A stretch of 64,000 nucleotides of DNA from an uncultured Alphaproteobacteria bacterium (GTDB taxonomy: Bacteria; Pseudomonadota; Alphaproteobacteria; CAAHEQ01; UBA3637): NCBI GenBank assembly GCA_944393195.1, contig CALXZG010000002.1, forward strand, positions 33,646 through 97,645, in the 5' to 3' direction. Shown piece by piece: positions 21,732-60,300 of the stretch. The translations under genes and the position numbers were made by a program. Position 1 is the first letter of the stretch, and every line of letters starts with the position of its first letter. The notes beneath the pieces were generated by a model. That model did no database searches, was not told the origin of the DNA, and saw nothing but the letters and a program-made list of their open reading frames with translations.

Positions 21732-21899
21732 AGTGTAACAATTTAATGTTCCTTTTTTTGTTATACTTTTTGCACCTTACACGACTTTTAACTAAATGAA
21801 CAGGAACCCTTTATAATATAAATATTTTCTTCTTGCTTTACCTTTCTTTTTGTGATACATAATTTTATAACATTTTAAGGAACATTAAATTGTTACACT
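21732..21899. repeat. perfect 23-bp inverted repeats (21732-21754 and 21877-21899) flanking a 122-bp AT-rich segment; part of the gene-less copy of the pilin-family 5' module
   Basis: agtgtaacaatttaatgttcctt and aaggaacattaaattgttacact are exact reverse complements. The enclosed segment is homologous to 51436-51533, which is upstream of gene 51585. Confidence 0.85.
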
Positions 21900-22050
21900 T
21901 CATTTGACATCTGTTTGATTAATAATCTATATGTGAAGTGCCCCAAAATCGGAAAAAAGTAAAATAGGGACAGATTCGCGGATTAATGCCGTGATACCGT
22001 TTTTATTGTATGGCGATATGTAAAAAAATCCCCGCGCCGGCGGGGATAAT
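21900..22050 (-). promoter_or_regulatory. conserved 5' module of the pilin-like family (orphan copy, minus orientation)
   Basis: The reverse complement aligns with 58183-58312 and with the reverse complement of 42392-42505 (tttttacatatcgcc ... atcaaacagatgtcaaatgaa). It is preceded by the hairpin terminator of ORF 22085-22480. Confidence 0.7.
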
Positions 22051-22084
22051 GTAAAAGAGAAAAGATAACGGGGATGTAAAAGGG

Positions 22085-22480
22085 TTATTCGCTTTTTTCG
22101 CGTTGTATTTCCCGGTTTAATTTTTCCCGATAATAATGTCGATATAAAACATGCCCGGCGATCGCCTCCCGAACATTAGATACTGTTCCGACCAAAGCAG
22201 CCAGACCGAATAACCCGCTAACCGCAATCAACGCCGTTGCCGTATCCGAATCGATTTCTTTTTGGCGGTGTTTCGCGGCCGCATTGGTGGCAACCATGAC
22301 AGACGCCGCCAAAATCCCCGAAAACACAAAAGCCGCTACGCCGGGGACAAGAGAATATGTCCGATAAAACTTTGTCCAATAGGCGATTGATGTATCACTC
22401 TTCCGCGGAATACGGGGCAAAGTTTCTTGTTCTTTATCGTTTAATATCAAAGATGTAATCAGGTTTTTGGATGAACTCAT
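22085..22480 (-). CDS. hypothetical two-helix membrane protein
   Basis: 131-aa ORF with two hydrophobic segments. A terminator hairpin (TCCCCGCCGGCGCGGGGA plus a T-run) lies downstream. Confidence 0.5.
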   Translation of the reverse strand: MSSSKNLITSLILNDKEQETLPRIPRKSDTSIAYWTKFYRTYSLVPGVAAFVFSGILAASVMVATNAAAKHRQKEIDSDTATALIAVSGLFGLAALVGTVSNVREAIAGHVLYRHYYREKLNREIQREKSE

Positions 22481-22634
22481 ATCATATCCTTTGGTTGATT
22501 TGTGACATCAGTATATGCTTTTATTTTTCTTTTGTCAATAAATTTCGTAAAATGTGCATCGGGGTGCAGAAAAACCTTGCCAAGGGAGATGTTTTAGGAT
22601 AGAATGCATACAATTTAACAGGAAAGCAGGCAAG

Positions 22635-26054: not shown

Positions 26055-26094
26055 CCGGTGATGTTTTTTTTCGAAGAAGAGTGGCTGATTTCCG

Positions 26095-27483: not shown

Positions 27484-27492
27484 GAGGGGCAC

Positions 27493-37605: not shown

Positions 37606-38276
37606 CCCTGCCGACAGTCCTTGTCGTGGACGATGATACCCGCCTACGCCGCCTGCTTAAAAAATATCTCTCCGAAAACGGCTTTTCCGTGACGGAAGCG
37701 CCGTCGGCGGACGAAGCACTTCCTATTTTAAACCTGCTTCGTATCGACATGATCATTATGGATATGATGATGCCGGGTACCGACGGTCGCGAAATGACAA
37801 AACAATTGCGAACCATGGGTAATACAACCCCCATTCTCATGCTGACGGCTATGGGCGACACCGATAACCGGATCGGCGGTCTGGAAGCCGGCGCCGACGA
37901 TTATCTCAGCAAACCATTCGAACCGCGTGAACTGTTGCTGCGCCTCCATAATATCCTGCGTCGCAGCAAACCATCCGCCGGCATGTTGCCGATTCATTTC
38001 GGTACCTGCCTCTTCGACGGAAAAACCGGTGTCTTAACAAAAGACGGAATCGTTGTCCCCCTGACCGGTGGCGAAACCAATCTGTTACGCCTGTTGATCG
38101 ACCACGCCGACACCCCCGTCTCTCGGGAAGAACTGATGCACCAAATGCAAACCGATAACGAACGCACCGTCGATGTCCAAATGACACGCCTGCGTAAGAA
38201 AGTAGAAGCCGATGCCGCGTATCCGACCTGCATTCAAACCGTCCGTGGTCAAGGCTATATGTTGGTGACCAAATGA
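37602..38276 (+). CDS. OmpR/PhoB-family response regulator (ChvI-like)
   Basis: 224 aa. Receiver domain (VLVVDDD ... DMMMPG) plus a winged-helix C-terminus (VDVQMTRLRKK ... IQTVRGQGY). Confidence 0.9.
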   Translation: MTLPTVLVVDDDTRLRRLLKKYLSENGFSVTEAPSADEALPILNLLRIDMIIMDMMMPGTDGREMTKQLRTMGNTTPILMLTAMGDTDNRIGGLEAGADDYLSKPFEPRELLLRLHNILRRSKPSAGMLPIHFGTCLFDGKTGVLTKDGIVVPLTGGETNLLRLLIDHADTPVSREELMHQMQTDNERTVDVQMTRLRKKVEADAAYPTCIQTVRGQGYMLVTK

Positions 38277-39667
38277 CCCGTCAAGCTCCCAAAACACATA
38301 TTGTCCGTTTTGATTGGCGCTCCGTCTGGGACTGGATACGCTACGGGGAACGAATGTTACGCAAACACATTTTTCCCAAAGGCCTCCTCTTTCGTTTTAT
38401 CCTGATTATTATCCTGCCTCTGATTTTATTACAGGCGCTTGTCCTTCTCTTTTTCTATGATCGCCATTGGGATACGATCAGCCGTCGCCTCGCTTCCGAT
38501 ATCGCCGGCGAAATCGGTGCCGTCGCCGATATGATTCAATCTGCCGATATCGTTTCCCCGACGGAACAAACCGCTTTTCTCCAAGCCATGAGCCACTCCC
38601 TCGGTATGACATTCGCTTTTGAACCAGGGGCGCACATTCCCGACCATATCCCTCCCACCCAAGACAAAACCGTCCGCACCCTTGTCCGCGCCTTGAACGA
38701 AATGACGTACCCCGTCCTGATACACGAATCCGACGGTAGTCAAAAAATTGTTCGTCTTCAATTAGACAGCGGCGTTCTGACCGCCGAAATTCAACGCAAA
38801 CGGTTTTTCAGCTCGACTGTCGATGTTTTCCTCATCTGGATGATCGGCTTTTCCATCCTGCTCTTCTGGATTGCGTTCCTGTTTATGAAAAATCAGGTTC
38901 GCTCCATTGTCCGCCTGTCCCAAGCCGCCGAATCATTCGGCCGCGGTCAAATTCGTGAAGACTTTAAACCCGAAGGGGCCACCGAAGTCAAACAAGCCGG
39001 CCTTTCCTTTTTGTCCATGAAAAACCGTATTCAAAAATATGTGACGGAACGTACCACCATGCTGTCCGGCGTTTCTCATGACCTGCGTACCCCGCTGACA
39101 CGAATGAAATTGCAACTTTCCATGATGCCGGATACCGAAACCACCCGCGATTTAACGGCCGATGTCACCGAAATGGAAAATATGTTGGAAGCCTACCTTT
39201 CCTTTGCCCGTGGCGAAGGAAAAGAACAACCGGATTGCATCAACCTCAATCGCTTAGTGGAAGACTTAATCGATAAACTCCGCAAATCCGGACAAATAAT
39301 CGATTTTCATGCCGAACAGGATATCACGTTAACCTGCCGCCCGAATAACGTTTCTCGCGCCCTGATGAATCTGTTGACGAACGCCGGGCGGTACGCTGAT
39401 CGGGCCAACGTCACACTCGGTCTCTATCGCGGTATGGCGCGCATTATCGTCGATGACGACGGTCCCGGGATTCCCGCTGATAAAAGAACCACCGTCTTCC
39501 GGGCCTTTACCCGATTGGAAACATCCCGTAATACCCATACGGGCGGGATCGGCCTCGGCTTAACCATCGCCCGCGACGTGGCACTGGCTCACGGCGGTGA
39601 TATTTATCTGGAAGACAGCCCCATGGGCGGCCTCCGCGCCATTATGCTCATCCCCATCGGCACATAA
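38273..39667 (+). CDS. sensor histidine kinase (EnvZ/ChvG-like)
   Basis: 464 aa. Two TM segments, HAMP domain, H-box SHDLRTPLTR, and N, G1 and G2 boxes. Confidence 0.9.
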   Translation: MTRQAPKTHIVRFDWRSVWDWIRYGERMLRKHIFPKGLLFRFILIIILPLILLQALVLLFFYDRHWDTISRRLASDIAGEIGAVADMIQSADIVSPTEQTAFLQAMSHSLGMTFAFEPGAHIPDHIPPTQDKTVRTLVRALNEMTYPVLIHESDGSQKIVRLQLDSGVLTAEIQRKRFFSSTVDVFLIWMIGFSILLFWIAFLFMKNQVRSIVRLSQAAESFGRGQIREDFKPEGATEVKQAGLSFLSMKNRIQKYVTERTTMLSGVSHDLRTPLTRMKLQLSMMPDTETTRDLTADVTEMENMLEAYLSFARGEGKEQPDCINLNRLVEDLIDKLRKSGQIIDFHAEQDITLTCRPNNVSRALMNLLTNAGRYADRANVTLGLYRGMARIIVDDDGPGIPADKRTTVFRAFTRLETSRNTHTGGIGLGLTIARDVALAHGGDIYLEDSPMGGLRAIMLIPIGT

Positions 39668-39689
39668 CACCTTCTCCCCGTATTATAAT

Positions 39690-39762
39690 CCTGTCATCCT
39701 TGCGAAAGCGAGGATCTCTTAACATTAAAAACGCGTCATTCTCGTATAGGCGGGAATTTTTT
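39690..39762. repeat. two palindromic GTCAT-type mini-repeats
   Basis: gtcatccttgcgaaagcgaggat and gtcattctcgtataggcgggaat. They belong to the same family as the repeats around the pilin-like loci. Confidence 0.7.
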
Positions 39763-39824
39763 GACGCCTCCCCTTCCCCTTGACACACCCCATATTGACC
39801 TTTATATATTCCGCAAGGGGGAAA

Positions 39825-40064
39825 ATGATGAAACAATCATCCGATCATCGATGGACACTCAAAGATAAACTGGATATGGCCGAAGCCATTTGCACCATCA
39901 TCGTCACAATCATGGCATTATGGGGAACTATTGCCGCCTATCGTAGCCACCTGTTCCATAAGGCCAGCCGCCTTATCGACCATTACCACGCCGAAATCGC
40001 CAAAGTCGAAACCGAATTGTCCGCCAAAGAAAAAACAATACCTGTTTTGCCCAAAACCTTGTGA
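39825..40064 (+). CDS. hypothetical small membrane protein
   Basis: 79 aa from ATG 39825 after AAGGGGGAA. One hydrophobic helix. Confidence 0.45.
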   Translation: MMKQSSDHRWTLKDKLDMAEAICTIIVTIMALWGTIAAYRSHLFHKASRLIDHYHAEIAKVETELSAKEKTIPVLPKTL

Positions 40065-40140
40065 CCGTCCCTGTTTTTTTTAGTTGATTTTTACGCCGTT
40101 TCTGGTACAATAGGGCATTATTTAACCGGAAAGGATACAC

Positions 40141-40701
40141 ATGGAATACGCACAAATTAAAGCTGATATGTTGGCTCATATGGCCAAAACGGAAGAAGCA
40201 TTGAAAAAAGATTTTGCCGGCCTCAGGACGGGTCGTGCGACAACTGCTTTGCTCGACGGTATTATGGTCGACGCTTACGGTTCACTCGTTCCTTTGAATC
40301 AGGTCGGGAACGCCTCCGTGCCGGAAGCCCGCATGCTGTCGGTTCAGGTTTGGGATAAGAATTTGTTGAAAACGGTTGAAAAAGCCATTCGCGATGCCGG
40401 TCTGGGTTTAAACCCGATGAATGACGGGCAAATGATTCGCATTCCCATTCCCCCATTGTCCGAGGAACGCCGTCTGGAACTCGTGAAGATCGCCGGTAAA
40501 TATACCGAAACGGCGCGTGTTTCCGCGCGCAACGTCCGCCGGGAAGCCTTGGACGAAGTTAAAAAGTTAAAACAAGCAAACGAAATTTCGGAAGACGATC
40601 AAAAACGATTCGAAACCGAAATTCAGGACGCAACGGATAAAACCATCGCCGTTCTGGACGATATGTTAAAGAATAAAGAAGCTGAAATTAAACAAGTATA
40701 A
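40141..40701 (+). CDS. frr: ribosome recycling factor
   Basis: 186 aa with a canonical RRF sequence. Confidence 0.95.
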   Translation: MEYAQIKADMLAHMAKTEEALKKDFAGLRTGRATTALLDGIMVDAYGSLVPLNQVGNASVPEARMLSVQVWDKNLLKTVEKAIRDAGLGLNPMNDGQMIRIPIPPLSEERRLELVKIAGKYTETARVSARNVRREALDEVKKLKQANEISEDDQKRFETEIQDATDKTIAVLDDMLKNKEAEIKQV

Positions 40702-41420
40702 TGACGACACAAGAACAAAATCTGCCCGTCCATATCGGTATTATTATGGACGGAAACGGTCGCTGGGCGACCAATCAAGGCCTGCCGCGCAGTGCCGGCC
40801 ATAAAAAAGGCGCTGAAAATATCGGTCCTATTTTGGAACACGCCCGCGCCCGCGGGATAAAGGTCGTTACTCTGTATGCCTTTTCATCGGATAATTGGAA
40901 ACGCCCGAAAGCCGAAGTTGACACCCTGATGGGGTTGTTCCGCCGGTATATGAATGAAGATATTAAACAGTTACAGGAAAAACACGTCCGTATTTCCTTT
41001 ATCGGTGATCGGGAACGCTTTGAACCCGATATGATTAAACGGATGAACGAAATCGAACGGGATACCGCCGCGTTTGACGATTTCCATGTATTGCTGGCGC
41101 TCAGCTACGGCGGCCGGGAAGACTTGATTGCCGCCATCAAAAAAATAGCCATTGATGTCTTGGATCGCAAATATCTGATTTCCAATATTGACGAACACAA
41201 AGTCCATAACGCCTTGTCCACCCATGCGGTTCCCTACCCCGATTTAGTGATTCGGACAAGCGGTGAACAACGGATTAGTAATTTCCTGTTGTGGGAAATC
41301 GCTTTTGCCGAACTGTACTTTACACCGATTTATTGGCCGGATTTCAACGAACACGATTTAGACGACGCGATAGAAGCTTACGGCCGCCGCCACCGGCGCT
41401 TCGGCAACGTTACTCCCTAA
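40701..41420 (+). CDS. uppS: undecaprenyl diphosphate synthase
   Basis: 239 aa. Contains the HIGIIMDGNGRWA motif. Confidence 0.95.
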   Translation: MTTQEQNLPVHIGIIMDGNGRWATNQGLPRSAGHKKGAENIGPILEHARARGIKVVTLYAFSSDNWKRPKAEVDTLMGLFRRYMNEDIKQLQEKHVRISFIGDRERFEPDMIKRMNEIERDTAAFDDFHVLLALSYGGREDLIAAIKKIAIDVLDRKYLISNIDEHKVHNALSTHAVPYPDLVIRTSGEQRISNFLLWEIAFAELYFTPIYWPDFNEHDLDDAIEAYGRRHRRFGNVTP

Positions 41421-41490
41421 AAAGTCGCCTTTTATAAATCTACGTCATCCCCGCACAAGCGGGGATTTTTTAATATTAAAAACCGAAAAC

Positions 41491-42357
41491 TCATCGACAG
41501 AGGGCAAATAGTAGTAGTCGACGTCCCAAACGGTTGAACCCGATCGCACCTGAACTACTACCCTGTATATAATACGAACTACATCCACTCAACTTCGTAC
41601 TTGTCCAATAAGGCTTACCTGTCGTGTGTGCCCATCCCGAACAGCTACCATAATAACTGTTTGCCTTAGCCGCCGCCAATTCTTCCGCCGTACACCCGTC
41701 CGTTAGCGGTGCTAAACTCTTCCCAAGTGCTTGACAGAAGTTCTCTGCTGCATGATAGGACATAGATCCTGTTGATGTTGTGCATGTTGTTCCGTTAATC
41801 TCTACTGTTGCAGTACTCATATTTGTGCACGTCCCAATCACCACATCACAACTATAAGTATTTTTACAATATTGATTATCCCCCGTACAATCATCATTTG
41901 TCATACATTTATTTGTTCCTAATGCGGATACACAGGTACCTATACCGGAACTATATTGACACTTCTCGTCTTTTCCACAACATTTGTCACCGCATGTAAC
42001 GCCATCCGGACAATAGACGCAATAACGAGGATCGTATCCCCCGATTTGAGCACCTGTACATCTCTCACATGTATCCTCTATATCTCCCGTATGCGTTTCG
42101 ACTGGATTTCCTTCTGTTGGACAAGCAATACAGGACGAAGACGCATATTTATTATAAAACTCACCTTCTTCACATTCCGGATAAAAATCTGTCACACATT
42201 CCCCTGTTGATAATCGATATTCATTCTCCCCACACTCTTGTTCTTCCGACTCACCATCTCCATCCCCTGAAATTTGGGAGCCGACCAACGCATTATGGAA
42301 AGCAAATAATATCTCGTTATCCTCTTGCTTTGTTTTCCCTTTTATGATACACAACAT
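41491..42357 (-). pseudogene. 5'-truncated member of the pilin-like/Cys-rich/lectin-like family (candidate silent cassette)
   Basis: The ORF begins inside the family 5' module. It joins the family alignment at EILFAFHNAL (EMLFAFANTL in the intact genes). It therefore lacks the RBS, the prepilin leader and the whole N-domain. The Cys-rich and YHAAENFC...ALCR parts are intact. Confidence 0.7.
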
Positions 42358-42596
42358 CTATAACAAAAAAATGTACATTAAATTGTTACACTTCATTTGA
42401 CATCTGTTTGATTAATAATCTATATGTGAACTTCCCCAAAATCAAAAAAAGTAAAATAGGGATAGATTCGCGGACTAATGCCGTGAATAATGTTTTTGTG
42501 TGGTGATATGTAAAAACGCCCTGTTATCACAAAAACTTTCCTGCCCGACAAAAAAGCGTCCCGAAACGGAACGCTTTCTTAACATATCGGCTACGT
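42358..42596 (-). promoter_or_regulatory. family 5' module including the recA terminator; inverted copy of 58005-58346
   Basis: The reverse complement aligns with the region downstream of rpsT apart from a roughly 110-nt repeat insertion there. It contains the palindromic site gtgtaacaatttaatgtacatttttttgttatag (42358-42391). Confidence 0.75.
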
Positions 42597-43631
42597 CTAT
42601 TCGCCATCCGCCGGTACGCCCTCATCATTATCCAACATTTGTTGTGATAAATCCTTGGCATCGTTGCGAATAATTGCCTCAACTTCATCGGCCATAGCCG
42701 GATGCGCCTTTAAATAAGCCCGCGCCGTTTCTCGCCCTTGCCCGATTCGCTCCCCACGGCAAGAAAACCAAGCACCGGCCTTTTCCACAACGCCTGCTTT
42801 AATCCCTAAATCCAACAATTCACCGGTTTTGGAAATTCCTTCACCGTACAGGATATCAAAGTCAACCGTTTTAAACGGCGGTGCAACCTTATTCTTAACA
42901 ATTTTAACCCGCGTCTGATTCCCGATCGTATTGTCCCGATCCTTAATAGCCCCGATCCGCCGAATATCCAATCGAACGGAAGCATAGAATTTTAACGCAT
43001 TACCGCCCGTCGTTGTTTCCGGACTACCGAACATAACCCCTAATTTCATCCGAATCTGATTGATGAAAATGACCAAGGTATTCGCACGCGCCACCGACGC
43101 CGTAATTTTACGCAAAGCCTGACTCATCAGCCGCGCCTGTAACCCCATGTGAGAATCCCCCATTTCGCCTTCCAATTCGGCTTTCGGAACCAACGCCGCC
43201 ACCGAATCCACAACCAAAACATCCAACGTTCCCGACCGTACTAACGTATCCGCGATTTCCAACGCCTGTTCCCCCGTATCCGGCTGAGAAATCAATAAAT
43301 CATCAATCTTAACCCCCAACTTTTTGGCATACGACGGATCCATGGCATGTTCAGCATCGATATAAGCACATACCCCGCCTTTTTTCTGAGCCTCTGCCAC
43401 CACATGCAAAGCCAACGTTGTTTTTCCCGAGCTTTCCGGCCCATAGATTTCCACAATCCGTCCGCGTGGCAGACCACCGATCCCCAAAGCCATATCCAAC
43501 CCCAAAGATCCCGTTGAAATAGCCGGAATTTCCATCGCGTTTTCCTGTTGCCCCAAGCGCATAATGGATCCCTTGCCAAACGCCCGTTCAATCTGTGCCA
43601 AAGCGGCTTCAAGTGCTTTTTCTTTTTCCAT
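42597..43631 (-). CDS. recA: recombinase RecA
   Basis: 344 aa. Contains Walker [10 protein letters not shown] and canonical RecA sequence throughout. Confidence 0.98.
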
Positions 43632-43636
43632 GTTTT

Positions 43637-43651
43637 GTTCCTCTTTTGTTC
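43637..43651. promoter_or_regulatory. GTTC-N7-GTTC motif (alphaproteobacterial LexA-box form) just upstream of recA
   Basis: gttcctcttttgttc, which reads GAAC-N7-GAAC on the recA strand. It lies 6-20 nt before the start codon and overlaps the RBS, which is an atypical position. Confidence 0.35.
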
Positions 43652-43778
43652 GTTTTTGGTAAGGTCACTATATCTTATTTTTTTACCCGACGCAACTTCT
43701 TTTTACATTAGACGATTCAAAAAATTAAAAAGCCCTTTTTCTGTAACGAAATAACCCCCGAAAAACAAAAGCGGACGC

Positions 43779-44372
43779 TTAACGCCCGCTTAAAAAATCA
43801 ACCAATTGACACATGGCTCGCGCTCGATGGGATATTCGGTTTTTAACCGCTTCATCCAAAGCGCCGAACGACGCGTCATACCCTGTCGGCACAAAAATCG
43901 GATCATAGCCGAATAAATGCGTTCCCGTCGCCGTTCGGGCAATGGTACCATCCACCCGACCGGTGAACACATGCTCCGCTCCATCTTCGGTCACCAAAGC
44001 CAAACAACACATAAAATATGCCGACCGATCCGGATTATCCCCGATTAACCGTTGCACAACATCAAACACGGCCGGATACCCGCCATGCTCCGACGCAAAC
44101 CGTGCCGACCGAATCCCCGGCGCATCCCCCATCGCCGCAATACATAATCCGGAATCATCCGCCAACGTGGGCATTCCCGTCTGTTGAAAGCCGGCCCGCG
44201 CCTTAATTAAGGCATTTTCCGCAAAAGTCGTCCCGTTTTCAGGTACATCAACCAACCCGGCCTCTCCCCCGCCGATAACCGTGATACCCAAAGGTGCCAA
44301 CATTGCCCGCACCTCGGCCAACTTATGCGCATTTTGTGTCGCCAACACCAACCGACTAAGCATGCGCCGCAT
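43779..44372 (-). CDS. rdgB: non-canonical purine NTP pyrophosphatase (RdgB/HAM1)
   Basis: 197 aa. Contains [13 protein letters not shown] and the rph-rdgB order. Confidence 0.9.
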
Positions 44373-45084
44373 CCACCAAAGCCGATTTTTGGATCTGAAT
44401 CAACGTTCCGATTCCCTTTTGCGCCAAAGCCAACAAAGCCGTCAATTCCGCCGGTGAAAAAGGCGCATGCTCGGCGGTTCCTTGAACTTCAATCAGATTG
44501 CCATGCCCGTTCATAACAAAATTAGCATCCGTTCCGGCGTTTGAATCCTCCACATAGTCCAAATCCAAAACCGGCACACCCTGTACCACACCACATGAAA
44601 CCGCCGCCACAAAATCCGTAATCGGTAAAGTGGCCCAAGCCTTTTTCGCCCCCACCTTTTGTAAAGCCAAATATAAAGCCACAAAACCACCTGTCACCGA
44701 CGCAGTCCGTGTTCCGCCGTCCGCTTGAATCACATCACAATCAATCTTGACCGTCATACCGTCCAAAGCCCGTAAATCGACACAAGCCCGCAACGCCCGC
44801 GCAATTAAGCGCTGAATTTCCTGCGTCCGCCCCTGCTGCCCTTTTTTAGCCTCCCGCTCCATGCGCGTTCCGGTTGATCGCGGCAACATACCATACTCTG
44901 CCGTCACCCACCCTTGCCCGGTACCCTTCACCCACAAAGGCACCTTTTCTTCTACCGAAGCCGTACACATGACATGCGTATCGCCCCATTTGATGAGGCA
45001 AGATCCCTCGGCATATTTATTGACATTTGGTATAATTTGAACAGAGCGCAATTCATTATCGGCACGTCCGGACGGTCTCGTCAT
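44356..45084 (-). CDS. rph: ribonuclease PH
   Basis: 242 aa. Contains [11 protein letters not shown] and other canonical RNase PH blocks. Confidence 0.95.
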
Positions 45085-45235
45085 TTTTTTCTCCTTTTAA
45101 AAAGCTGATAAGGATTGTCATTGTATGCCTTTTCCCCCGAAAAATCAAGCATTCACTGCCGAAATCCGTAAAAAGTCTTGATTTTTATTCCGAAAGTATT
45201 TACATATATGTATATATCAATATAAGGAAACAAAA

Positions 45236-45832
45236 ATGGCAAAACATCAACATGAATCAAAGCCGGCCGCCGAAACCACGGCCGACAAAGATAAACAAAC
45301 ATCCGCGCCGACCGAAACACCGGCGCAACCCGAACCGAATCCGGCCGAGGAAATCACACACTTAACCGAAGAAGTCGCGCGTTGGAAAGACACCGCGGCC
45401 CGGGCCATGGCCGAAATGGAAAATCTCCGGAAAAGAACCCGGATTGATATCGAAAAAGCGACGCGCTACGCCAACGCTTCTTTTGCCAAAGAATTATTGC
45501 CCGTCGCCGATTGCCTGGAACGTGCCGCCGATTGCGCTCGGCAAGAGTTAGCTCAGGAAAAAGCAACCGGCAAAACCGATTGCACAACCGTTGAAAACCT
45601 ACTGACCGGCGTCGATATGACCTATAAACAATTACAGGACGCCTTGAAAAAACAAGGCATCGAACGCATGGATTGCCTTGATCGGATTTTTGATCCCAAC
45701 TTGCATAAGGTGATTCAGGAAGTCGATACCCCCGATAAACCGGCCGGAACGATTGTCCAAATTCTGCAACCGGGATACACCATCGGCGGCGATCGCGTCC
45801 TGCGCGAAGCAATGGTTGTCGTCGCGAAATAA
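45236..45832 (+). CDS. grpE: nucleotide exchange factor GrpE
   Basis: 198 aa with a GrpE coiled-coil and beta domain. A terminator lies at 45851-45877. Confidence 0.93.
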   Translation: MAKHQHESKPAAETTADKDKQTSAPTETPAQPEPNPAEEITHLTEEVARWKDTAARAMAEMENLRKRTRIDIEKATRYANASFAKELLPVADCLERAADCARQELAQEKATGKTDCTTVENLLTGVDMTYKQLQDALKKQGIERMDCLDRIFDPNLHKVIQEVDTPDKPAGTIVQILQPGYTIGGDRVLREAMVVVAK

Positions 45833-45850
45833 CCGATATCTGATGCATCA

Positions 45851-45877
45851 AGGGGGCGTTTCCGCCCCCTTTTTTTT
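45851..45877 (+). terminator. grpE rho-independent terminator
   Basis: GGGGGCG-TTTC-CGCCCCC followed by T8. Confidence 0.8.
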
Positions 45878-46280
45878 CGTCACCCCTTATTATTAGTCCA
45901 TCATCCCCTATAATTCTACGTCATCCCCGACCCCATAAGTAATCCGTCACCCCCGACTTGATCGGGGGTCTCATGACCATCTTACCCCCTTTTAAATTCC
46001 AACATCCGCTTGCCGGCGGAGACTCCCGCTGCCTTGGCGCGCGGTGTTTCATTGCCTTACGCGAAAAAACAATTCACCGGATTGTTTTTTCTTGCGCGGT
46101 ATCCTTGCGTAAGCGAGGATCTCATGACACGCACTCCATCCCTTTATAAAAAACCCGCACGGCCACCCCCCGCGGGGAAAGGCGGGGCGGCCATAATGAC
46201 CTCTTTGCCCGTGTCGGGGCTCTTAAATGCCCCGACACAAATAATTAAATAGGTAAAGGAGATATTAAAAAATCAGAACC
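45878..46280 (-). repeat. 3' flank plus repeat array of the family, inverted copy of 59742-60255
   Basis: The reverse complement is colinear with the region after gene 58482-59741: ttttttaatatctcctttacctatttaattatttgtgtcggggc, then the roughly 130-nt unit gatcctcgcttacgcaagg...ggcaagcggatgttggaat, then catgagacccccgatcaagtcggggg and GATGACGG modules. Confidence 0.8.
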
Positions 46281-46550
46281 TTAGCGACACAGGGCGTTGA
46301 CGGCGCCGCCGCTCCAACCGACAGACCCGACCGCGCCTGACCAGGGATATACATAATACGAAGCACATCCACTCAATTTTGTTGCTGTCCAATAATGGTT
46401 AGAAAGACTACTATTCAACCATCCACTACAACTACCATAATAATTATTTGCCTTAACTGTTGCTAATTCTTCCGCCGTACACCCGTCTGTCACCGATACC
46501 AAACTCTTCCCGAGGGCTTGACAGAAATTAACTGCTGCATGATACGGCAT
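46281..46550 (-). pseudogene. isolated C-terminal (lectin-like) fragment of the family
   Basis: Encodes PYHAAVNFCQALGKSLVSVTDGCTAEELATVKANNYYGSCSGW...GAVGSVGWSGGAVNALCR. Family homology stops abruptly at about 46550. Confidence 0.8.
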
Positions 46551-47090
46551 ATAATTCGTTGGTTCCGGGGGAGAGGGGAGAAGGTAATGACGAATCCGAA
46601 GTTGAAGTGTGTGAAGAGGGTGAATATCGGTTATCGACAGGAGAGTGTGTGATAGATTCACATCCGGAATGTGGTGATGGAGAGTTTTATAATAAATGGA
46701 TATCTTCTTCCTGTATTGCGTGTCCAACGGAAGGAAATCCGGTCGAAATTAGTGTATCGGATGTGGAAGATAGTTGTGAAAAATGTGCGGGGGCGCAGTA
46801 TGGTGGGTATTATCCTAATTATTGCGTCTATTGTCCATCCGGTGTTGTGTGTGGTGATCAATGTTGTGGGGAAGGACAAATGTGTCAATATAGTTCCGGT
46901 ACCTATACCTGTGTATCGGAATTAGGTGACGGCGAATGTTGGACAAATGATGATTGTGCCGGAGCCAATCAATATTGTCAAAATGGTGGAAGTTGTGAAG
47001 TGACGATTGGGACGTGTGAAACGATCAGTAGTACAGCTGTGATAATTAACGGAAAAGAGTATACGGCTTCAACGGATTATGTATCTTACC
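46551..47090 (+). pseudogene. isolated middle (Cys-rich) fragment of the family on the opposite strand
   Basis: Encodes NSLVPGERGEGNDESEVEVCEEGEYRLSTGECV...EYTASTDYVSYQAA. It abuts the minus-strand C-terminal fragment head-to-head at 46550/46551. It ends at the YHAA-equivalent point, where it joins a repeat unit through the shared string ggcagcgg. Confidence 0.8.
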
Positions 47091-47232
47091 AGGCAGCGGG
47101 AGTCGCCGCCGGCAAGCGGATGTTGGAATTGGAATGGAGTAAGATGGTCATGAGACCCCCGATCAAGTCGGGGATGACGGATTACTTATGGGGTCGGGGA
47201 TGACGGACTAATGATAAGGGAATGGCGGAAAA
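47091..47232 (+). repeat. distal repeat block (ggcagcgggagtcgccgccggcaagcggatgttggaattgga...catgagacccccgatcaagtcggggatgacgg...)
   Basis: Same orientation as 60117-60230 and inverted relative to 45905-46025. Confidence 0.8.
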
Positions 47233-49765: not shown

Positions 49766-49779
49766 TCCGAGAGACCGTT

Positions 49780-51193: not shown

Positions 51194-51269
<76 letters not shown>

Positions 51270-51380: not shown

Positions 51381-51584
51381 ATCAAACAGATGTCAAATGA
51401 AGTGTAACAATTTAATGTTCATTAAAATGTTATAAAATTATGTATCACAAAAGTGAAAACAAAGCAAGAAGAAAATATTTATATTATAAAGAGTTCCTGT
51501 TCATTTGGTTAAAAGTCATGTAAGGTGCAAAAAGTATAACAAAAAAGGGAACATTTTTTTGTTATAGTTGAAAAGGAGCGATAA
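51381..51584 (+). promoter_or_regulatory. 5' control region of pilin-like gene A
   Basis: Conserved block atcaaacagatgtcaaatgaagtgtaacaatttaatgt (possible ATGTCA-17-TAATGT promoter). Palindromic site 1 lies at 51402-51435 and palindromic site 2 at 51534-51567, the latter directly before the AAAGGAG RBS. Confidence 0.5.
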
Positions 51585-52994
51585 ATGACTGAAACAAAAA
51601 ACAAAAACGGGAAAAGTGGTGTGTATCAAAATAGTGATTTAGGGGCATCGTGTGTGTGTCATAAGACCCCCGATCAGGTCGGGGATGACGGTTTAACAGT
51701 AGGGAGTGCGTGTTCAAAGATCCCCGCTTTCGCAGGGATGACGGGTAGTAACCGCGGGGAGCGGGGACGGAGCATGGTTGAGATGTTGGGCGTTCTGGCG
51801 GTCATGGGCGTATTGTCGATCGGCGGTGTGGCCGGGTATCGGTATGCGATCGATAAAATGAATGCGAATGACATTATCAATGAAGTGAAAAAAAGAGCCG
51901 TGACGGCGAGTCAACAACGCATCTTGGGACACGATATTAATTTATCGGAATACGGGGATAATGGTCGGATTAAGGGAATTCATGCCGTTACAGCGACAAA
52001 CGATTATGCGGGGGATAAAGGGTTCTTTGCGTTGACGGTATCAAATATACCGCAACGGGTATGCGATGACATTCTGAAACAGGATTGGAATATGCCGGTG
52101 GAAACAGCGGTCGGAGGTGTTGTGGTTGATGATGATACAGCCTGCGCCGCCGGGGATAATGAAATGTTGTTTGCGTTTGCGAATACGTTGGACAGCTCTC
52201 TGGTTCCGGGAGAAGGGGGAGAAGATGACGGGGATGAAGAGGAAGTACAGGAATGCGCCGAGGGTGAATATCGGTTATCGACAGGGGAATGTGTGACGGA
52301 TTCACATCCGGAATGTGGTGATGGGGAGTTTTATAATGGACTCACGGATTCTTGTACAGCCTGTCCGACGGAAGGAAATCCTGTCCATATTTATTCGTCG
52401 GATATGGAAGATACGTGTGAAAAATGTACGGGGTCGCGGTATGGTGGACCTTATCCCAGCTATTGTGTCTATTGTCCGGATGGTGTTACCTGTGGTGATC
52501 AATGTTGTGGGGAAGACGAAATGTGTCAACGCGATACAAGTTCTTGGCCATATACATTTACCTGTGTCTCTACATTAGGGGAAGGAGAATGTTTGACGAA
52601 TGATGATTGTGTAGATAATCAATATTGTCGGAATAGTTATGGTTGTGAAGTGACGGTTGGGACATGTACGGATATTAGTAGTACGCCGGTAGAGATTAAC
52701 GGAACAGAATACACAGCGTCAACGGGTTCTATGCTGTATCATGCGGCGGAGAATTTCTGTGATGCGCTTGGGAAGCGTTTAGCACCGGTGACAGACGGAT
52801 GTACGGCGGAAGAATTGGCAGCGGTTAAAGCAAATGGTTCAGGTAGTTGTTCGGGATGGGCACAGACGACGGGTGAGCGTTATTGGACAGCAACCAAATT
52901 AAGCGGATGCGCTTCGTATTATGTATGGAGTAGTAGTTCAGGCGCGGTCGGGTCTGTCGGTTGGAACGGCGGCAACTACGCCCTGTGTCGCTAA
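51585..52994 (+). CDS. modular type-IV-pilin-like protein with Cys-rich repeats and lectin-like C-terminal module (copy A; leader expanded by a repeat insertion)
   Basis: 469 aa. The class III signal-like core G-RSMVEMLGVLAVMGVLSIGGVAGY lies at aa 61-85. It is followed by a conserved head domain, an acidic linker, a region with about 25 Cys, and a C-terminal YHAAENFC...W...ALCR. Confidence 0.8.
   Translation: MTETKNKNGKSGVYQNSDLGASCVCHKTPDQVGDDGLTVGSACSKIPAFAGMTGSNRGERGRSMVEMLGVLAVMGVLSIGGVAGYRYAIDKMNANDIINEVKKRAVTASQQRILGHDINLSEYGDNGRIKGIHAVTATNDYAGDKGFFALTVSNIPQRVCDDILKQDWNMPVETAVGGVVVDDDTACAAGDNEMLFAFANTLDSSLVPGEGGEDDGDEEEVQECAEGEYRLSTGECVTDSHPECGDGEFYNGLTDSCTACPTEGNPVHIYSSDMEDTCEKCTGSRYGGPYPSYCVYCPDGVTCGDQCCGEDEMCQRDTSSWPYTFTCVSTLGEGECLTNDDCVDNQYCRNSYGCEVTVGTCTDISSTPVEINGTEYTASTGSMLYHAAENFCDALGKRLAPVTDGCTAEELAAVKANGSGSCSGWAQTTGERYWTATKLSGCASYYVWSSSSGAVGSVGWNGGNYALCR
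51612..51770 (+). repeat. 159-nt in-frame insertion of palindromic mini-repeats inside the leader of gene A
   Basis: Absent from copy B (MTEIKMENG-LSMVE). It contains agacccccgatcaggtcggggatgacgg and agatccccgctttcgcagggatgacgg, both found in intergenic copies elsewhere in the window. Confidence 0.8.
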
Positions 52995-53170
52995 GGTTCC
53001 CGCTTTTTGTGTGATAGGGCAAGCGAAACGGGGTGAAGATAGCTCTTCACCCCGTTTCTTGCCCCCTTTTTATCCCATGGAGCCTCTTCTGTATTCCGTG
53101 GAACAACGTTAGTATATACACCAATATGGTGTGTTGTCAATATCAAAACAATTTTGTTTCATTTTTTTTG

Positions 53171-53300: not shown

Positions 53301-53314
53301 TAAAGGATAACACA

Positions 53315-54367: not shown

Positions 54368-54703
54368 ATGTCCGATATTGAAAAAGTCTTTATTTTAGCC
54401 GCTACATTGTGGGTAACGGCGGTTGGTTTTATTATTTTTTCTTGGTTGTTAGAAGTCCGGCGGCAACAGGCGTTAGTCTTTATCGCACGGCGGTTGGAAT
54501 CGATTGACAAGCGGTTGCGGCGTCTGACGGGAGAGGTTCGGCCGGAGCGAAAAGCATCTGTCGAACAGAGTGCCGATTCGGCAGAGGCTCAGACGGCGAT
54601 CCCCGTGGTTGATATTCCGAAGAATATGCCCTTATCGGCCTATGAATCGGTGACGTTGCCGGATAATGCGGCGGTTCATTTTGTTGATGAGCATGCGTCT
54701 TAA
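54368..54703 (+). CDS. hypothetical membrane protein
   Basis: 111 aa with one N-terminal hydrophobic helix. Confidence 0.45.
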   Translation: MSDIEKVFILAATLWVTAVGFIIFSWLLEVRRQQALVFIARRLESIDKRLRRLTGEVRPERKASVEQSADSAEAQTAIPVVDIPKNMPLSAYESVTLPDNAAVHFVDEHAS

Positions 54704-56507: not shown

Positions 56508-56578
56508 GGTGTATTTTATACTTGCTTTCTATCGGAAAAGCAGTTATAACAGAAAAAGCAGATGAAAAGGAAAAGCAG

Positions 56579-57271: not shown

Positions 57272-57280
57272 AGGCATAAC

Positions 57281-57634
57281 ATGCGGTATGCGGCAATCTT
57301 GTTTTTAGTTATCGGCTTGATTGGCGGGGTGGTTGCGGCTTTTTTACCCGGGACGGCGGATGTCCCTTTAATGGAGGGAATGGTTGTTTCGGATGACGGG
57401 GAAAGTTTTGATTTTGACACGCCGGCGGGACAAATTTTAACGGTAACGGCGGTAACGGCGGCTACACCGGATCGGGTGCGGGCATTCTATCAGAAAACAT
57501 TGCCGGCTTTGGGATGGACGCAACAACGGGACGGATTTTTTACCCGGGACGGGGACGAATTGACGTTAACAATTGACCGGCAAAATCAACAAACAACCGT
57601 TTCTTTTGAGATGATGTTGACGGGAACACGATAA
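57281..57634 (+). CDS. hypothetical exported protein
   Basis: 117 aa with an N-terminal hydrophobic helix. No motif recognised. Confidence 0.5.
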   Translation: MRYAAILFLVIGLIGGVVAAFLPGTADVPLMEGMVVSDDGESFDFDTPAGQILTVTAVTAATPDRVRAFYQKTLPALGWTQQRDGFFTRDGDELTLTIDRQNQQTTVSFEMMLTGTR

Positions 57635-57722
57635 GAATTTGAAAAAAATACTTGACTTTTAGTATTTTGAGGTGTATAAAAAAGACCTCTGTTTTTTTTA
57701 ATATCATTCATTGGGGAATAAA

Positions 57723-57989
57723 ATGGCCAATATCAAGTCTGCTAAAACGCGTATCAAACGCAACAAAAAACGTGAAAAAATCAATCTGGATCGCTTGAAC
57801 GCTGTCCGGACGGAAGAAAAGAAGGCGCGCAAAGCAATTGCCGCCGGTGATAAAGAAGCGGCTAAAACGGCCGTGAAATCTGCCGAAGCGGCGTTGGCTC
57901 GCGCCGCCGGTAAAGGGACTGTTCATAAAAAGACGGCTTCCCGTCATACATCTCGGTTGGTGCAAGCGTTGAAAAAGTTATTCAGCTAA
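57723..57989 (+). CDS. rpsT: 30S ribosomal protein S20
   Basis: Start at the ATG at 57723 (MANIKSAKTRIKRNKK). Confidence 0.95.
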   Translation: MANIKSAKTRIKRNKKREKINLDRLNAVRTEEKKARKAIAAGDKEAAKTAVKSAEAALARAAGKGTVHKKTASRHTSRLVQALKKLFS

Positions 57990-58010
57990 GCTTGACGATT
58001 TTTTTAGAAA

Positions 58011-58038
58011 AGCGTTCCGTTTCGGGACGCTTTTTTTT
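58011..58038 (+). terminator. rpsT terminator, sequence-identical to the recA terminator (42550-42577, minus strand)
   Basis: AGCGTTCCG-TTT-CGGGACGCT followed by T8. This is the first element of the duplicated family 5' module. Confidence 0.8.
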
Positions 58039-58481
58039 GTTGGGCAGGAAAGTTTTTGTGATAACAGGGCGTTGTTATTTTTCCGTCATCCCTGCGCAGG
58101 CGGGGATTTTTGGACGCACAACCACACCTTTAAAAGACCCCCGATCAGGTCGGGGGTGACAGGGTACTTGTGGATCGGGGATTTTTTTACATATCGCCAT
58201 ACAATAGAAACGGTATTCACGGCATTAGTCCGTGAATCTGTCCCTATTTTACTTTTTTCTGATTTTGGGTCACTCCCAATCTAAATGATTTATCAAACAG
58301 ATGTCAAATGAAGTGTAACAATTTAATGTACCTTAAAATGTTACAGTTTTTATAACATAATCAGGAATGCGATGCAAGTCCTTTTTTATTAAGAATTAAT
58401 CGGTTATCGATTTGTCATTTTTTGTCCAAACTGTAACACAAAAGGGTACATTTTTGTGTTACAGTTCGAAAGGAGTATTAA
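58039..58481 (+). promoter_or_regulatory. 5' control region of pilin-like gene B
   Basis: Conserved module 58183-58346, with a roughly 110-nt mini-repeat insertion at 58072-58182. Site 1 lies at 58313-58346. Site 2, ctgtaacacaaaagggtacatttttgtgttacag, lies at 58431-58464 (13-bp arms), followed by the AAAGGAG RBS. Confidence 0.5.
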
Positions 58482-59741
58482 ATGACTGAAATCAAAATGG
58501 AAAATGGTCTGAGTATGGTTGAGATGTTGGGTGTTCTGGCGGTGGCGGGTGTCCTGTCGATTGGCGGTGTGGCCGGATATCGGTATGCGATTGATAAAAT
58601 GAATGCGAATGACATTATCAACGAAGTGCGGAAACGGGCCGTGACGGCAAGTCAACAACGCATCTTGGGACACGATATTAATTTATCGGAATACGGGGAT
58701 AATGGCCGGATTAAAGGAATTCATGCCGTTACAGCGACAAACGATTATGCTGGGGATAAAGGGTTCTTTGCGTTAACGGTATCAGCAGTCCCGCAACGGG
58801 TATGTGATGACATCCTGAAACAGGATTGGGCAATGCCGGTAGAAACCGCCGTCGGTGGTGTTGTGGTCGATGATGATACCGCCTGCGCCGAAGGGGATAA
58901 TGAGATGTTGTTTGCGTTTGCGAATACGTTGGATAATTCGTTGGTCCCGGGAGAAGGGGGAGGAGAGAACGGAGATGAATCGGAAGTACAGGAATGCGCC
59001 GAGGGCGAATATTGGTCATCAAGTTTAGAAACATGTGTGACAGACCCGCATACGGAGTGCGCGGATGGGGAGTTTTATAATGGATATACAAACTCCTGTA
59101 CGGCTTGTCCAACAGATGGAAATGCCGTTCCAAATGATTCATTAGATATGGAAGATACGTGTGAAAAATGCGTAGGGTCGCGGTATGGTGGATCTCATCC
59201 CGGCTATTGTGTCTATTGTCCGGATGGCGTTACCTGTGGCGATCAATGTTGTGGCGAAGGACAAATGTGTCAACGTAGTGGTCCTTATCCGTATACATTT
59301 ACCTGTGTCTCTGCATTAGGGACAAATGAATGTATGACGAATGATGATTGTACGGGAGCAAATCAATATTGCCAGAATGATTCTGGTTGTAGTGCGACAA
59401 ATGGGACGTGTCAAACGATCAGTAGTACGACGGTGACGATTAACGAAAAAACATACACAGCATCGACAGATCGTATGTCGTATCATGCGGCAGAGAACTT
59501 CTGTGATGCGCTTGGGAAAAAATTAGCACCGGTGACAGACGGGTGTACATCGGAAGAATTGGCAGCGGTTAAAGCAAACAATTATTATGGCAGTTGCACA
59601 GGATGGGCACACACGACGGGTAGGTATTATTGGACAAGTACGAAGATAAGCGGGTGTCATTCGTATTATGTAAGCAATAGCAGTTCAGGCGCGGTCGGGT
59701 CTGTCCATCCGTTCGTCGGCTACCACGCCCTTTGTCGCTAA
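58482..59741 (+). CDS. modular type-IV-pilin-like protein with Cys-rich repeats and lectin-like C-terminal module (copy B, canonical)
   Basis: 419 aa. The N-terminus MTEIKMENG-LSMVEMLGVLAVAGVLSIGGVAGYRY has Gly at -1, Glu at +5 and a hydrophobic helix. The downstream architecture matches copy A. Confidence 0.85.
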   Translation: MTEIKMENGLSMVEMLGVLAVAGVLSIGGVAGYRYAIDKMNANDIINEVRKRAVTASQQRILGHDINLSEYGDNGRIKGIHAVTATNDYAGDKGFFALTVSAVPQRVCDDILKQDWAMPVETAVGGVVVDDDTACAEGDNEMLFAFANTLDNSLVPGEGGGENGDESEVQECAEGEYWSSSLETCVTDPHTECADGEFYNGYTNSCTACPTDGNAVPNDSLDMEDTCEKCVGSRYGGSHPGYCVYCPDGVTCGDQCCGEGQMCQRSGPYPYTFTCVSALGTNECMTNDDCTGANQYCQNDSGCSATNGTCQTISSTTVTINEKTYTASTDRMSYHAAENFCDALGKKLAPVTDGCTSEELAAVKANNYYGSCTGWAHTTGRYYWTSTKISGCHSYYVSNSSSGAVGSVHPFVGYHALCR

Positions 59742-60300
59742 GGTTCCCGCTTTTTTAATATCTCCTTTACCTATTTAATTATTTGTGTCGGGGCATTTAA
59801 GAGCCCCGACACGGGCAAAGAGGTCATTATGGCCGCCCCCGCTTTCCCCGCGGGGGTGGCCGTGCGCGTTTTTTATAAAGGGATGGAGTGCGTGTCATGA
59901 GATCCTCGGGTCAAGCCCAAGGATGACAGTTTTATAATAAGGGATTGTGTTAAAAGATTCCCGCTTGCGCGGGAATGACGAGATATTTATATGGGATGAC
60001 GTAGGAGGGGAGGAGTGAGGTGGTTGAAAGATCCTCGCTTACGCAAGGATACCGCGCAAGAAAAAACAATCCGGTGAATTGTTTTTTCGCGTAAGGCAAT
60101 GAAACACCTCGCGCCAAGGCAGCGGAAGTCGCCGTCGGCAAGCGGATGTTGGAATTGGAAAGGTGTGTGCGTCATGAGACCCCCGATCAAGTCGGGGATG
60201 ACGGATTACTTATGGGGTCGGGGATGACGGATTACTTATGGGGTCGGGGATGACGGGGTATTTATAGGGGGGGGTGACGGAGGCAGGGAACGAGGTGTGG
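59742..60300 (+). repeat. 3' flank and dense repeat array, including 2.3 tandem copies of a 26-nt unit at 60197-60256
   Basis: Contains the hairpin gtgtcggggc...gccccgacac, the roughly 130-nt unit at 60030-60160, catgagacccccgatcaagtcggggatgacgg, and tandem gatgacggattacttatggggtcggg units. Confidence 0.8.

Follow-up and report, generated by a model that had tools for sequence, protein, structure and literature searches.

Putative invertons upstream of a dispersed family of pilin-like adhesin genes in an uncultured alphaproteobacterium

We studied a stretch of 64,000 nucleotides (nt) from the chromosome of an uncultured Alphaproteobacteria bacterium of the gut (assembly GCA_944393195.1, contig CALXZG010000002.1, positions 33,646 to 97,645; in the following, the window), in which five loci, here called A, B, C, S and D, share sequence modules. 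With a probability of roughly 0.72, we consider these loci to be part of a dispersed family of pilin-like adhesin genes, each of which has its own small invertible segment (inverton) directly upstream and all of which act as recombination hot spots. Both orientations of the same segment allele occur at one locus in conspecific strains. That the module upstream of the genes is a site-specific invertible switch was missed by an earlier note on this DNA, which had compared the five loci with the cassette systems of Neisseria and Campylobacter fetus. The system would thus mainly be one of on/off phase variation and not of Neisseria-style cassette copying.

According to the proposed mechanism, a site-specific recombinase would flip the segment between two palindromes of 34 base pairs (bp) with a core of A-run, GTWC and T-run. 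The flip would turn a promoter-like element either toward or away from the gene, such that each family member would be switched on or off independently (phase variation). Since many loci carry one site type, a trans-acting invertase is expected. We infer that the segment carries the promoter, which of its orientations is ON, and what kind of enzyme acts on it. At the same time, the loci would be hot spots for homologous and illegitimate recombination, owing to their repeated sites, conserved 5' modules and surrounding hairpin mini-repeats. Mosaic variable regions, inter-strain allele replacement, rearrangements and truncated leftovers (C, D and the two pieces of S, i.e., S1 and S2) would result. 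The leftovers are most plausibly decaying by-products, which may now and then serve as sequence donors.

The invertible segment

An alignment of the upstream regions yields palindromic 34-bp sites of the form GTGTAACA-N8-GTWC-N8-TGTTACAG. The respective pattern (TAACA-N17-20-TGTTA) is found 7 times in the window, where 0.15 occurrences are expected by chance: two each at A, B and D and one at C. At A, B and D, the inverted repeats bound a segment of about 85-100 nt, with site centres 118-132 nt apart. The segment ends about 20 nt before the ribosome binding site (RBS) at A and B. Two unrelated segment types, referred to as A-type and B-type, are served by the same sites. The intact genes, given with their lengths in amino acids (aa), and the complete invertons of the window are the following.

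58482..59741, + strand: gene B, intact, 419 aa (from open reading frame (ORF), AlphaFold (AF2) model and Foldseek)
58313..58464, + strand: B inverton, i.e., site1 58313-58346 (GTGTAACAATTTAATGTACCTTAAAATGTTACAG), B-type segment, site2 58431-58464 (CTGTAACACAAAAGGGTACATTTTTGTGTTACAG)
directly 3' of site2, + strand: B RBS (GAAAGGAG), with the ATG at 58482
57996..58312, + strand: upstream part of the B 5' module, with the terminator hairpin of the preceding gene, hairpin mini-repeats (58137-58161) and the core
from 58292: B core (ATCAAACAGATGTCAAATGAA, continuing into site1), about 55 nt that are nearly invariant and common to all copies
51585..52994, + strand: gene A, intact, 469 aa, leader extended in frame by a mini-repeat insertion
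51402..51567, + strand: A inverton, i.e., site1 51402-51434 (centre GTTC), A-type segment, site2 51534-51567 (centre GAAC)
about 51570-51578, + strand: A RBS
21662..22050, - strand: D, a gene-less inverton with sites 21733-21766 and 21866-21898 around an A-type segment

Next, we compared the window with contigs and loci of conspecific strains or related species (L-numbers in the following; P-numbers denote family proteins). The orientation comparisons span samples, strains and paralogs rather than one population. In a conspecific strain, the A-type segment of locus L102, which encodes P0019, is inverted relative to window A. Its left site is composed of the left half of site1 and the reverse of the left half of site2, while its right site joins the reverse of the right half of site1 to the right half of site2. 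That is, L102 shows hybrid half-sites as predicted by a crossover at the two site centres.

The second case is the locus downstream of tRNA-Thr, where contigs from five samples have the same flank. Here, the B-type segment of L118 is reversed relative to that of L121-L124: the 90 nt past the site centre in L118 agree with the reverse complement of the L124 segment at 90/90 positions, and the upstream flanks agree at 135/136. The two orientation paths share only the 4-7-nt centre, such that assembly error cannot make these junctions. The start of L003 had been read as two modules placed head to head; after comparison with L121-L124, this was replaced by an inverton in its other orientation.

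The A-type sites have TT and AA as their central dinucleotides, i.e., the sites are in inverted orientation, while the B-type sites have a symmetric GTAC centre. Serine invertases require sites in inverted orientation, as set by the central dinucleotides.

The A-type segments conserve a promoter-like element TTAAC(C/T)-N18-TATAAT (10/12 consensus positions) that reverses its direction with the flip. In window A, the best such element (TTAACC-N18-TATAAT, 51512-51483) points away from gene A; in L102, the conserved element faces the gene. The B-type segment holds a promoter-like TTAAAA-N17-CATAAT (58333-58361, 9/12) that faces gene B. On this weak basis, B is predicted to be ON and A to be OFF in the window. 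The P0019 gene itself (L102, 9921-10040) shows a tandem duplication of about 60 nt in the part coding for the N-domain, which leaves two ORFs of 69 aa and 376 aa; the inverton still aims its best promoter-like element at the split gene.

Layout of the five loci

The shared modules described in the earlier note were reproduced by self-BLASTN of the window and by tblastn, with the latter finding no family copies in the window beyond the five loci. Positions 51770-53008 (A) align with 58511-59755 (B) at 82.7% identity over 1251 nt, and 41473-42253 on the - strand (C) aligns with either gene at 73-74% over about 780 nt. For D (21736-22034), similarity is limited to the sequence upstream of A, B and C (84-92%), in line with its description as a 5' module without a gene. 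S consists of two pieces on opposite strands as claimed, i.e., S1 (46535-47122, +; aa 146-348) and S2 (46559-46284, -; aa 329-419). All five peptide motifs quoted in the note are shared in the alignment exactly as stated, and every locus indeed lies between convergent genes. The partial copies and repeat blocks are located as follows.

41491..42357, - strand: cassette C, ORF of 288 codons, structure kept in L001-L004 and L006
41496..41686, - strand: replaced 3' tract of C
42358..42596, - strand: 5' module of C, with a single palindromic site (42358-42391), core, upstream module and a terminator hairpin beside recA
46535..47098, + strand: cassette S1, from the linker (aa 146) to ..SYQAA, 3' end cut by a mini-repeat
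46281..46559, - strand: cassette S2, C-terminal fragment (about aa 329-419), head-to-head with S1
45904..46122, no strand: hairpin mini-repeat block left of S, an inverted copy of 47091-47221 that also resembles 60029-60229
47091..47221, no strand: hairpin mini-repeat block right of S
59743..60234, no strand: B 3' flank, with mini-repeats and a strong terminator-like hairpin (59828-59864)

The ORF of C begins within the A-type segment of its 5' module and continues directly into the family protein at about aa 139 (..EILFAFHNA..). It contains the whole variable half; RBS, leader and the pilin module that forms the N-domain are absent, as had been noted. S had also been considered as one cassette whose middle was flipped in place. 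This was ruled out by L120, where S1 runs through its stop codon (aa 146-419) beside S2, while S1 of the window is cut by the mini-repeat. The 3' flank of S2 is nearly identical to that of B. Concerning D, one flank is the x-flank found 5' of the P0019 gene and the other is a reversed core plus upstream module. That is, two 'upstream' halves face each other with no gene between them.

Two claims of the note hold in part. Embedding in mini-repeats applies to C, S, A and B, which account for 8/9 of the mini-repeats (hairpin plus RTGAC(G/A)) in the window, but not to D, which has none; the ninth (at 5329) is weak and AT-rich. Likewise, S1 and S2 lack a 5' module and so fit the description as promoter-less partial copies, while C and D carry the module. 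The adjacency of C and recA, for which the note suspected coincidence, is treated as such here: in L005, the recA side holds a leader and repeats only.

Gene A carries an insertion of about 150 nt in its leader (about 51600-51760, before GRSMVEML) that is made of hairpin mini-repeats and is translated into, e.g., ..PDQVGDDG.. and ..IPAFAGMTG... The same leader insertion is found in P0025, and members from other species (P0078, P0091) have analogous ones.

The encoded proteins

The N-terminus of B reads MTEIKMENG followed by LSMVEMLGVLAVAGVLSIGGVAGY, i.e., it has Gly at -1, Glu at +5 and then a hydrophobic helix. With the junction MTEIKMENG/LSMVEML, B shows a pilin-type leader together with the hydrophobic helix. 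The motif MVEM.GVLA..G.L..G..GYR is invariant across 20-39 homologues. An AF2 model of B was built on a 39-sequence alignment, with a predicted local distance difference test (pLDDT) score of 78. It places a long helix (14-61) on a small sheet of four strands, in a module reaching residue 147, which is followed by a disordered Gly/Glu linker (152-168), a beta-rich, Cys-rich stalk and an alpha/beta domain (about 320-419) with pLDDT 84-96. Stalk and tip (residues 170-419) hold 24/26 of the cysteines of B; C108 and C135 are invariant in the pilin module.

Foldseek matches the B N-domain to TcpA (8uhf) and a type IVb pilin of enterotoxigenic Escherichia coli (ETEC; 9iuf) with probability 1.0 and E-values of 3e-3 to 1e-2. 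The per-target template-modelling (TM) score against these two structures is 0.44-0.46, which gives moderate support for a pilin fold. For the B C-domain, matches are the C-terminal domain of Bd2740 (8oks), CLEC9A (3vpp) and many other C-type-lectin-like domains (CTLDs), and a profile search of PDB sequences with B found a langerin-type CTLD (E 0.036). Judged by the model, A and B are modular type IV pilin-like proteins with a C-type-lectin-like tip. The family proteins would be built into a type IV filament, and the modelled tip probably binds glycans.

We also compared the substitution patterns of the copies. The N-domains of A and B, which the note had called nearly identical in nucleotides, share 90% nucleotide identity, with a proportion of synonymous differences (pS) of 0.32, a synonymous divergence (dS) of 0.42 and a ratio of nonsynonymous to synonymous divergence (dN/dS) of 0.08; the constancy is thus one of the protein. 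For the variable half, dS is 0.50 and dN/dS 0.39. Since dS is 0.42 and dN/dS 0.08 in the N-domains, constancy is attributed to purifying selection rather than copying. A and B are, by these sequence estimates, old paralogs whose constant part is held by selection and not by recent copying. For C and S, dN/dS vs. the other copies is 0.25-0.34 and hence not close to 1.

Mosaicism, allele replacement and rearrangement

First, we evaluated whether the patchy differences between the copies exceed chance. Informative sites among the four coding copies support AB vs. CS 32 times, AS vs. BC 24 times and AC vs. BS 21 times. They cluster along the sequence (runs test p=0.0018; a statistic like the pairwise homoplasy index (PHI), p=0.076). 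PHI on 24 full-length proteins is 0.868 for the variable half vs. 1.223±0.020 for permuted alignments and not significant for the N-domain. For nucleotide alignments of same-species copies, the PHI z-scores are -10.5 with 8 copies, -5.2 with 7 paralogs and -3.1 with 6 copies. A mosaic test thus confirms the patchiness emphasized in the note: the variable halves are mosaic (PHI p<0.001).

Next, we compared alleles at the same locus. The 3' tract of C (190 nt) is about 27% divergent from the allele in L002, L003, L004 and L006 and shows in-frame indels, while the rest of the locus (41690-42596, about 900 nt) has 0-2 nt differences per 100 vs. those strains. A donor of this tract was not found in the window, the compared loci or 120 family proteins, where the best match reaches 81-83%. 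In L120, S2 is 80% identical to window S2 while the adjoining S1 is 99% identical; L121 carries a different S1 allele (76%) between flanks of 98.9% identity. Similarly, the genes that L094 and L107 carry at the B locus share 78-90% identity with B, between flanks of 98-99%. Together with the mosaic halves, these alleles bear out the note's idea that the loci take part in recombination. As for recent conversion tracts between non-orthologous loci, only conserved motifs of 38-48 nt with at least 94% identity were found among the about 8 loci sampled.

Gene order differs among conspecific strains, with breakpoints at family loci. At least five structural states were observed at the tRNA-Thr locus. 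One of them joins tRNA-Thr directly to the gene for a 131-aa protein and dnaE and was recovered from three independent samples (L005, L091, L119); the junction has identical sequence in L005 and L091, and L119 shows the same BLAST join coordinates. We found no simple path of one or two inversions from the window to this gene order. Strains also differ in whether B or a CcrM-like gene is found next to trxB. In L105, L106 and L109 (about 5936-6195), trxB is followed by a gene for a CcrM-like N6/N4 methyltransferase instead of B, and the break point is at the family locus. The note had taken an identical arrangement in related genomes together with congruent blocks as a sign of ordinary decaying paralogs; among the strains compared, arrangements differ and blocks are not congruent.

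Most metagenome contigs of the species stop at a family 5' module or inverton, either within it or shortly before it (ends of L088-L093, L094-L101 and L121-L126). Family loci systematically break short-read assemblies.

Several copies show signs of decay. In S2 of L002 and L003, deletions of 13 nt and 29 nt remove the stop region. The B locus of L094 (ERZ16268158, 369-470) has a deletion from mid-segment to about codon 38, which leaves a 5'-truncated copy like C.

Other species and the candidate invertase

The core sequence is not conserved in other species and is absent from the JGI metagenome contigs. Paralogs from one and the same genome nevertheless have 5' modules of 200-300 nt in common. 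Palindromes of 36 bp (TATATTAAATCTAGACGGTCGTCTAGATTTAATATA) surround 109 nt in species JAZLAQ, and the paralogous loci L016 and L072 match at 98/109 positions when one segment is inverted vs. 67/109 in forward direction; TTGACA-type promoters face the gene only in L016. Across the other-species loci compared, inverted repeats of at least 16 nt that flank 100-140 nt were found at -240 to -55 in 30/69 cases, vs. 4/66 control regions and 3/69 shuffled sequences. The sites share a core of A-run, 4-6-bp palindrome and T-run.

In two species, a phmmer search with Hin revealed a 197-aa serine recombinase directly upstream of, and divergent from, a family gene. The protein combines a Resolvase with an HTH_7 domain. 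It is conserved across the clade, at 72-80% among the closest relatives in the database, some of which are named invertase; the few relatives with a source name are from metagenome-assembled genomes (MAGs) of Alphaproteobacteria. In a related species, an orthologue of the invertase is divergent from a YadA-like adhesin of 526-660 aa with YadA anchor (L112, L113, 3700-4000). On the YadA side, the intergenic segment of L112 and L113 (105 nt) is bounded by the hix-like sequences AAACCAAGGTT and AACCTTGGTTT. The two segments match at 74/105 positions when inverted vs. 55/105 forward, with an identical invertase encoded in both loci.

Within the window, no recombinase was found by Pfam on the main ORFs or when every ORF of at least 100 aa was searched by phmmer using Hin, FimB and XerD as queries, in agreement with the note. 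By analogy with the other species, the switch enzyme is most likely a Hin-like serine invertase that is encoded elsewhere in the genome. The system as a whole appears to run on one conserved Hin-like invertase that is also linked to the YadA-like adhesin.

Alternative explanations

Several observations weigh against a family of pilin-like adhesins with individual invertons. With respect to the proteins, position +1 is R in most members, an unusual residue there for a pilin, and the pilin models score below their cut-offs, i.e., 12.4 bits vs. 21.2 for PF07963 (N_methyl) and 10.8 bits vs. 16.3 for TIGR02532. Furthermore, the Pfam-matched genes of the contigs examined include no type IV pilus, type II secretion or prepilin peptidase genes. 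With respect to the switch, flipping is seen between samples and paralogs and not within one population. The promoter-like elements are consensus matches only (9-10/12), and promoter-like hexamers occur in both orientations of the A-type segment. The link to a Hin-like invertase rests on other species, and about 150 kb of examined contigs of this species hold no recombinase gene. Finally, the starting points of C (aa 139) and S1 (aa 146) almost coincide and the ORFs of both stay open across strains, even with alleles that differ by 8-24%, which is not predicted if they are decaying.

The rearrangements raise the question whether the same invertase also recombines distant sites. In such a genome-wide shufflon, large inversions would reassort 5' modules and promoters with gene bodies, resembling C. 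fetus sapA or the long-range inversions of Bacteroides fragilis, and the partial loci would be products or substrates. We regard this as unlikely, at about one chance in five. It would fit the hybrid site of D (left half of site2 plus reversed left half of site1) with its two facing upstream-type flanks, and the change of segment type (A-type or B-type) between strains at the tRNA-Thr and D loci. The structural states at tRNA-Thr, the exchange of the trxB neighbour and the repeated recovery of the tRNA-Thr to dnaE join point in the same direction, as does the right edge at S of a block with reversed GC skew (31.4-46 kb). However, homologous recombination within the nearly invariant core of about 55 nt would give the same switches of segment type. 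This core lies 5' of site1, such that the crossover points behind the type switches cannot be placed; type switches at site1 were considered as proof of site-specific exchange and dropped for this reason. Also, the junction in L005, L091 and L119 is at a short AT-rich microhomology outside the sites, no single inversion leads from the window to their gene order, and the left edge of the skew block is without family sequence.

A variant would have the palindromic sites serve at two levels, i.e., local ON/OFF flipping and invertase-mediated exchange between distant loci. We give it a similarly low chance. In the same tentative picture, the exchange would reassort switches, gene bodies and 5'-less cassettes (C, S1), and the truncated cassettes would be a maintained reservoir.

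Somewhat less probable still is a pilE/pilS-type system, in which C, S1 and S2 would be silent cassettes that are copied into A and B by RecA-dependent gene conversion. The positions at which C and S1 begin are at the boundary of the constant and variable parts, both contain the whole variable half, and both are open across strains. Their dN/dS values, the mosaic variable halves, the conversion-like 190-nt tract in C and the differences between B-locus alleles are likewise expected under gene conversion. On the other hand, there is no donor-recipient pair: the longest near-identical inter-locus stretches are those of 38-48 nt, and in the sole clear tract C is the recipient, with no donor found. 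Many intact genes (at least four on the source contig), each with its own switch, imply that there is no single expression site. Partial copies decay (deletions in S2, S1 cut by a mini-repeat, the L094 B locus, the recA-side copy in L005), and A and B are old paralogs (dS 0.4-0.5). The pilE/pilS layout proposed by the note, which also is at odds with the 5' modules of C and D, is for these reasons not retained.

That the loci are birth-and-death paralogs with palindromes as transcription-factor operators, junk partial copies and no programmed variation is very improbable: it accords with old intact paralogs under purifying selection, with decay in partial copies and with the missing recombinase in the window. 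The orientation data already speak against it, i.e., the 90/90 reverse-complement identity at one locus, the hybrid half-sites and junction k-mers whose paths share only the 4-7-nt centre and so have no misassembly route, as do the same architecture in both orientations in other species and the invertase gene beside a family gene in two of them.

Relation to known systems

Invertible promoters are known from fimS of E. coli with FimB/FimE, from hin/hix of Salmonella and from the multi-locus switches of B. fragilis with the serine invertase Mpi. As in these systems, a short putative-promoter segment with inverted repeats lies directly 5' of a gene for a surface structure and is found in both orientations; as in the Mpi-type system, many loci share one site type. 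The candidate enzyme from other species resembles Hin in its Resolvase and HTH_7 domains, and the site core of A-run, short palindrome and T-run with a central dinucleotide resembles hix. The 26-bp hix-type site and its enhancer have been described (PMC2724282). In contrast to known invertons, each boundary here is a palindrome in itself, 34 bp long and with TGTAACA arms. The genes behind the segments encode modular type IV pilin-like proteins of Alphaproteobacteria, two unrelated segment types are served by the same sites, and no invertase gene was found in the examined contigs of this species.

Regarding the proteins, more than 1,200 modular pilins in 264 architectures have been reported (PMC8179133). 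In Streptococcus sanguinis PilC, the grafted module is a lectin (PMC9934059); in CofB, a type IVb minor pilin of ETEC, there are beta-repeat and beta-sandwich/lectin domains (PMC6048534). With PilC, CofB and S. sanguinis PilB (von Willebrand factor A (vWA) module), the family shares an N-terminal pilin module, a linker and a grafted binding module, and the best fold matches of its N-domain are type IVb pilins. It differs in that a Cys-rich stalk and a C-type-lectin-like domain are grafted, in that there are many copies per genome instead of one minor pilin in a pil operon, and in that pilin hidden Markov models (HMMs) stay below threshold.

Site-specific inversion is also known to vary type IV pilus adhesins, i.e., in the R64 shufflon (Rci, PilV) and in Moraxella (Piv). 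There, inversion swaps C-terminal coding segments of one gene, whereas here a non-coding segment upstream of complete genes is inverted. Only locus S has coding pieces on opposite strands as in R64 and Piv, and no site was found at S.

With Neisseria pilE/pilS, the family has in common a pilin-like product with a conserved N-terminal and a variable, mosaic C-terminal part as well as 5'-truncated copies. Neisseria also has dense intergenic hairpin repeats near such loci (dRS3/NIME elements), which the hairpin repeats described here recall. The differences are the many intact genes, the 5' module kept by C and D and the absence of donor-recipient tracts. In C. fetus sapA, clustered homologues depend on a single promoter that lies on one invertible element, and the inversion requires RecA. 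Oppositely oriented conserved 5' regions and chromosomal inversions ending at homologues are similar here. However, the loci described here are dispersed between housekeeping genes and every intact gene is preceded by a small switch of its own, so that the sapA-type layout named by the note does not apply either.

Invertons before adhesin or pilus genes and one invertase that serves many loci are well known. New here are the gene family and the clade; searches of the available literature returned no description of this family.

Chromosomal setting and distribution of the family

The window is chromosomal and contains many housekeeping genes (gidB-parAB, dnaE, rho, cysS, recA, grpE, accA, trxB) and, according to Rfam, only three tRNAs. 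The GC skew switches its sign at about 15.5 kb, beside gidB-parA-parB (15000-19300), which suggests a replication origin there; it is probably located near this position. From 31400 to 46000, the skew is negative even across plus-strand genes and positive on both sides, which suggests an inverted chromosome block. Its right edge coincides with locus S; its left edge (31280-31570) holds terminator hairpins only. The region 4000-6000 has a GC content of 0.38 vs. about 0.48 and holds an S15/hydrolase-like gene and a tRNA-Glu. The ORFs 805-2013 and 6530-8050 are without Pfam match.

Besides A and B, the source contig carries two intact family copies outside the window (P0007 and P0025). The species has further family loci, one flanked by alaS and a peptidase gene (L102) and others following rpmJ (L103, L104). 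In L103 (strain ERZ16268270, 1-5100), genes for a phage capsid and a head-tail connector are found a few kb 5' of the family locus of P0008.

The family has 320 matches in the protein collection, nearly all of them without names. A scan of contigs with the family alignment (one genome per species) yielded at least 539 stretches, of which the best 80 loci were examined; the same scan with the gene B sequence alone gave no match. Among these best 80, 77 are from MAGs of uncultured Alphaproteobacteria, one is from an Acidaminococcaceae and two are from Pseudomonadota MAG contigs. The sources that can be read from isolate or contig names of the 77 are the guts of humans, rabbits or ruminants. Several genomes contribute at least six of the 80 loci each; none of the 80 is from the window's own species. 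Within this sample, the family is essentially restricted to MAGs of gut Alphaproteobacteria, with many copies per genome.

Significance

The guts of humans and animals commonly harbour uncultured Alphaproteobacteria, which are almost unstudied. The family described here would provide a concrete host-interaction system for them, i.e., a repertoire of lectin-tipped filament subunits, each with its own inverton. The 34-bp sites can easily be scored in metagenomic reads, such that ON/OFF states may be tracked across hosts and over time without cultivation. Family loci break assemblies and mark rearrangement break points, which bears on MAG quality in this clade. If the two-level use of the sites were true, the chromosome would harbour a shufflon at chromosome scale, in which truncated cassettes are a reservoir and not debris.

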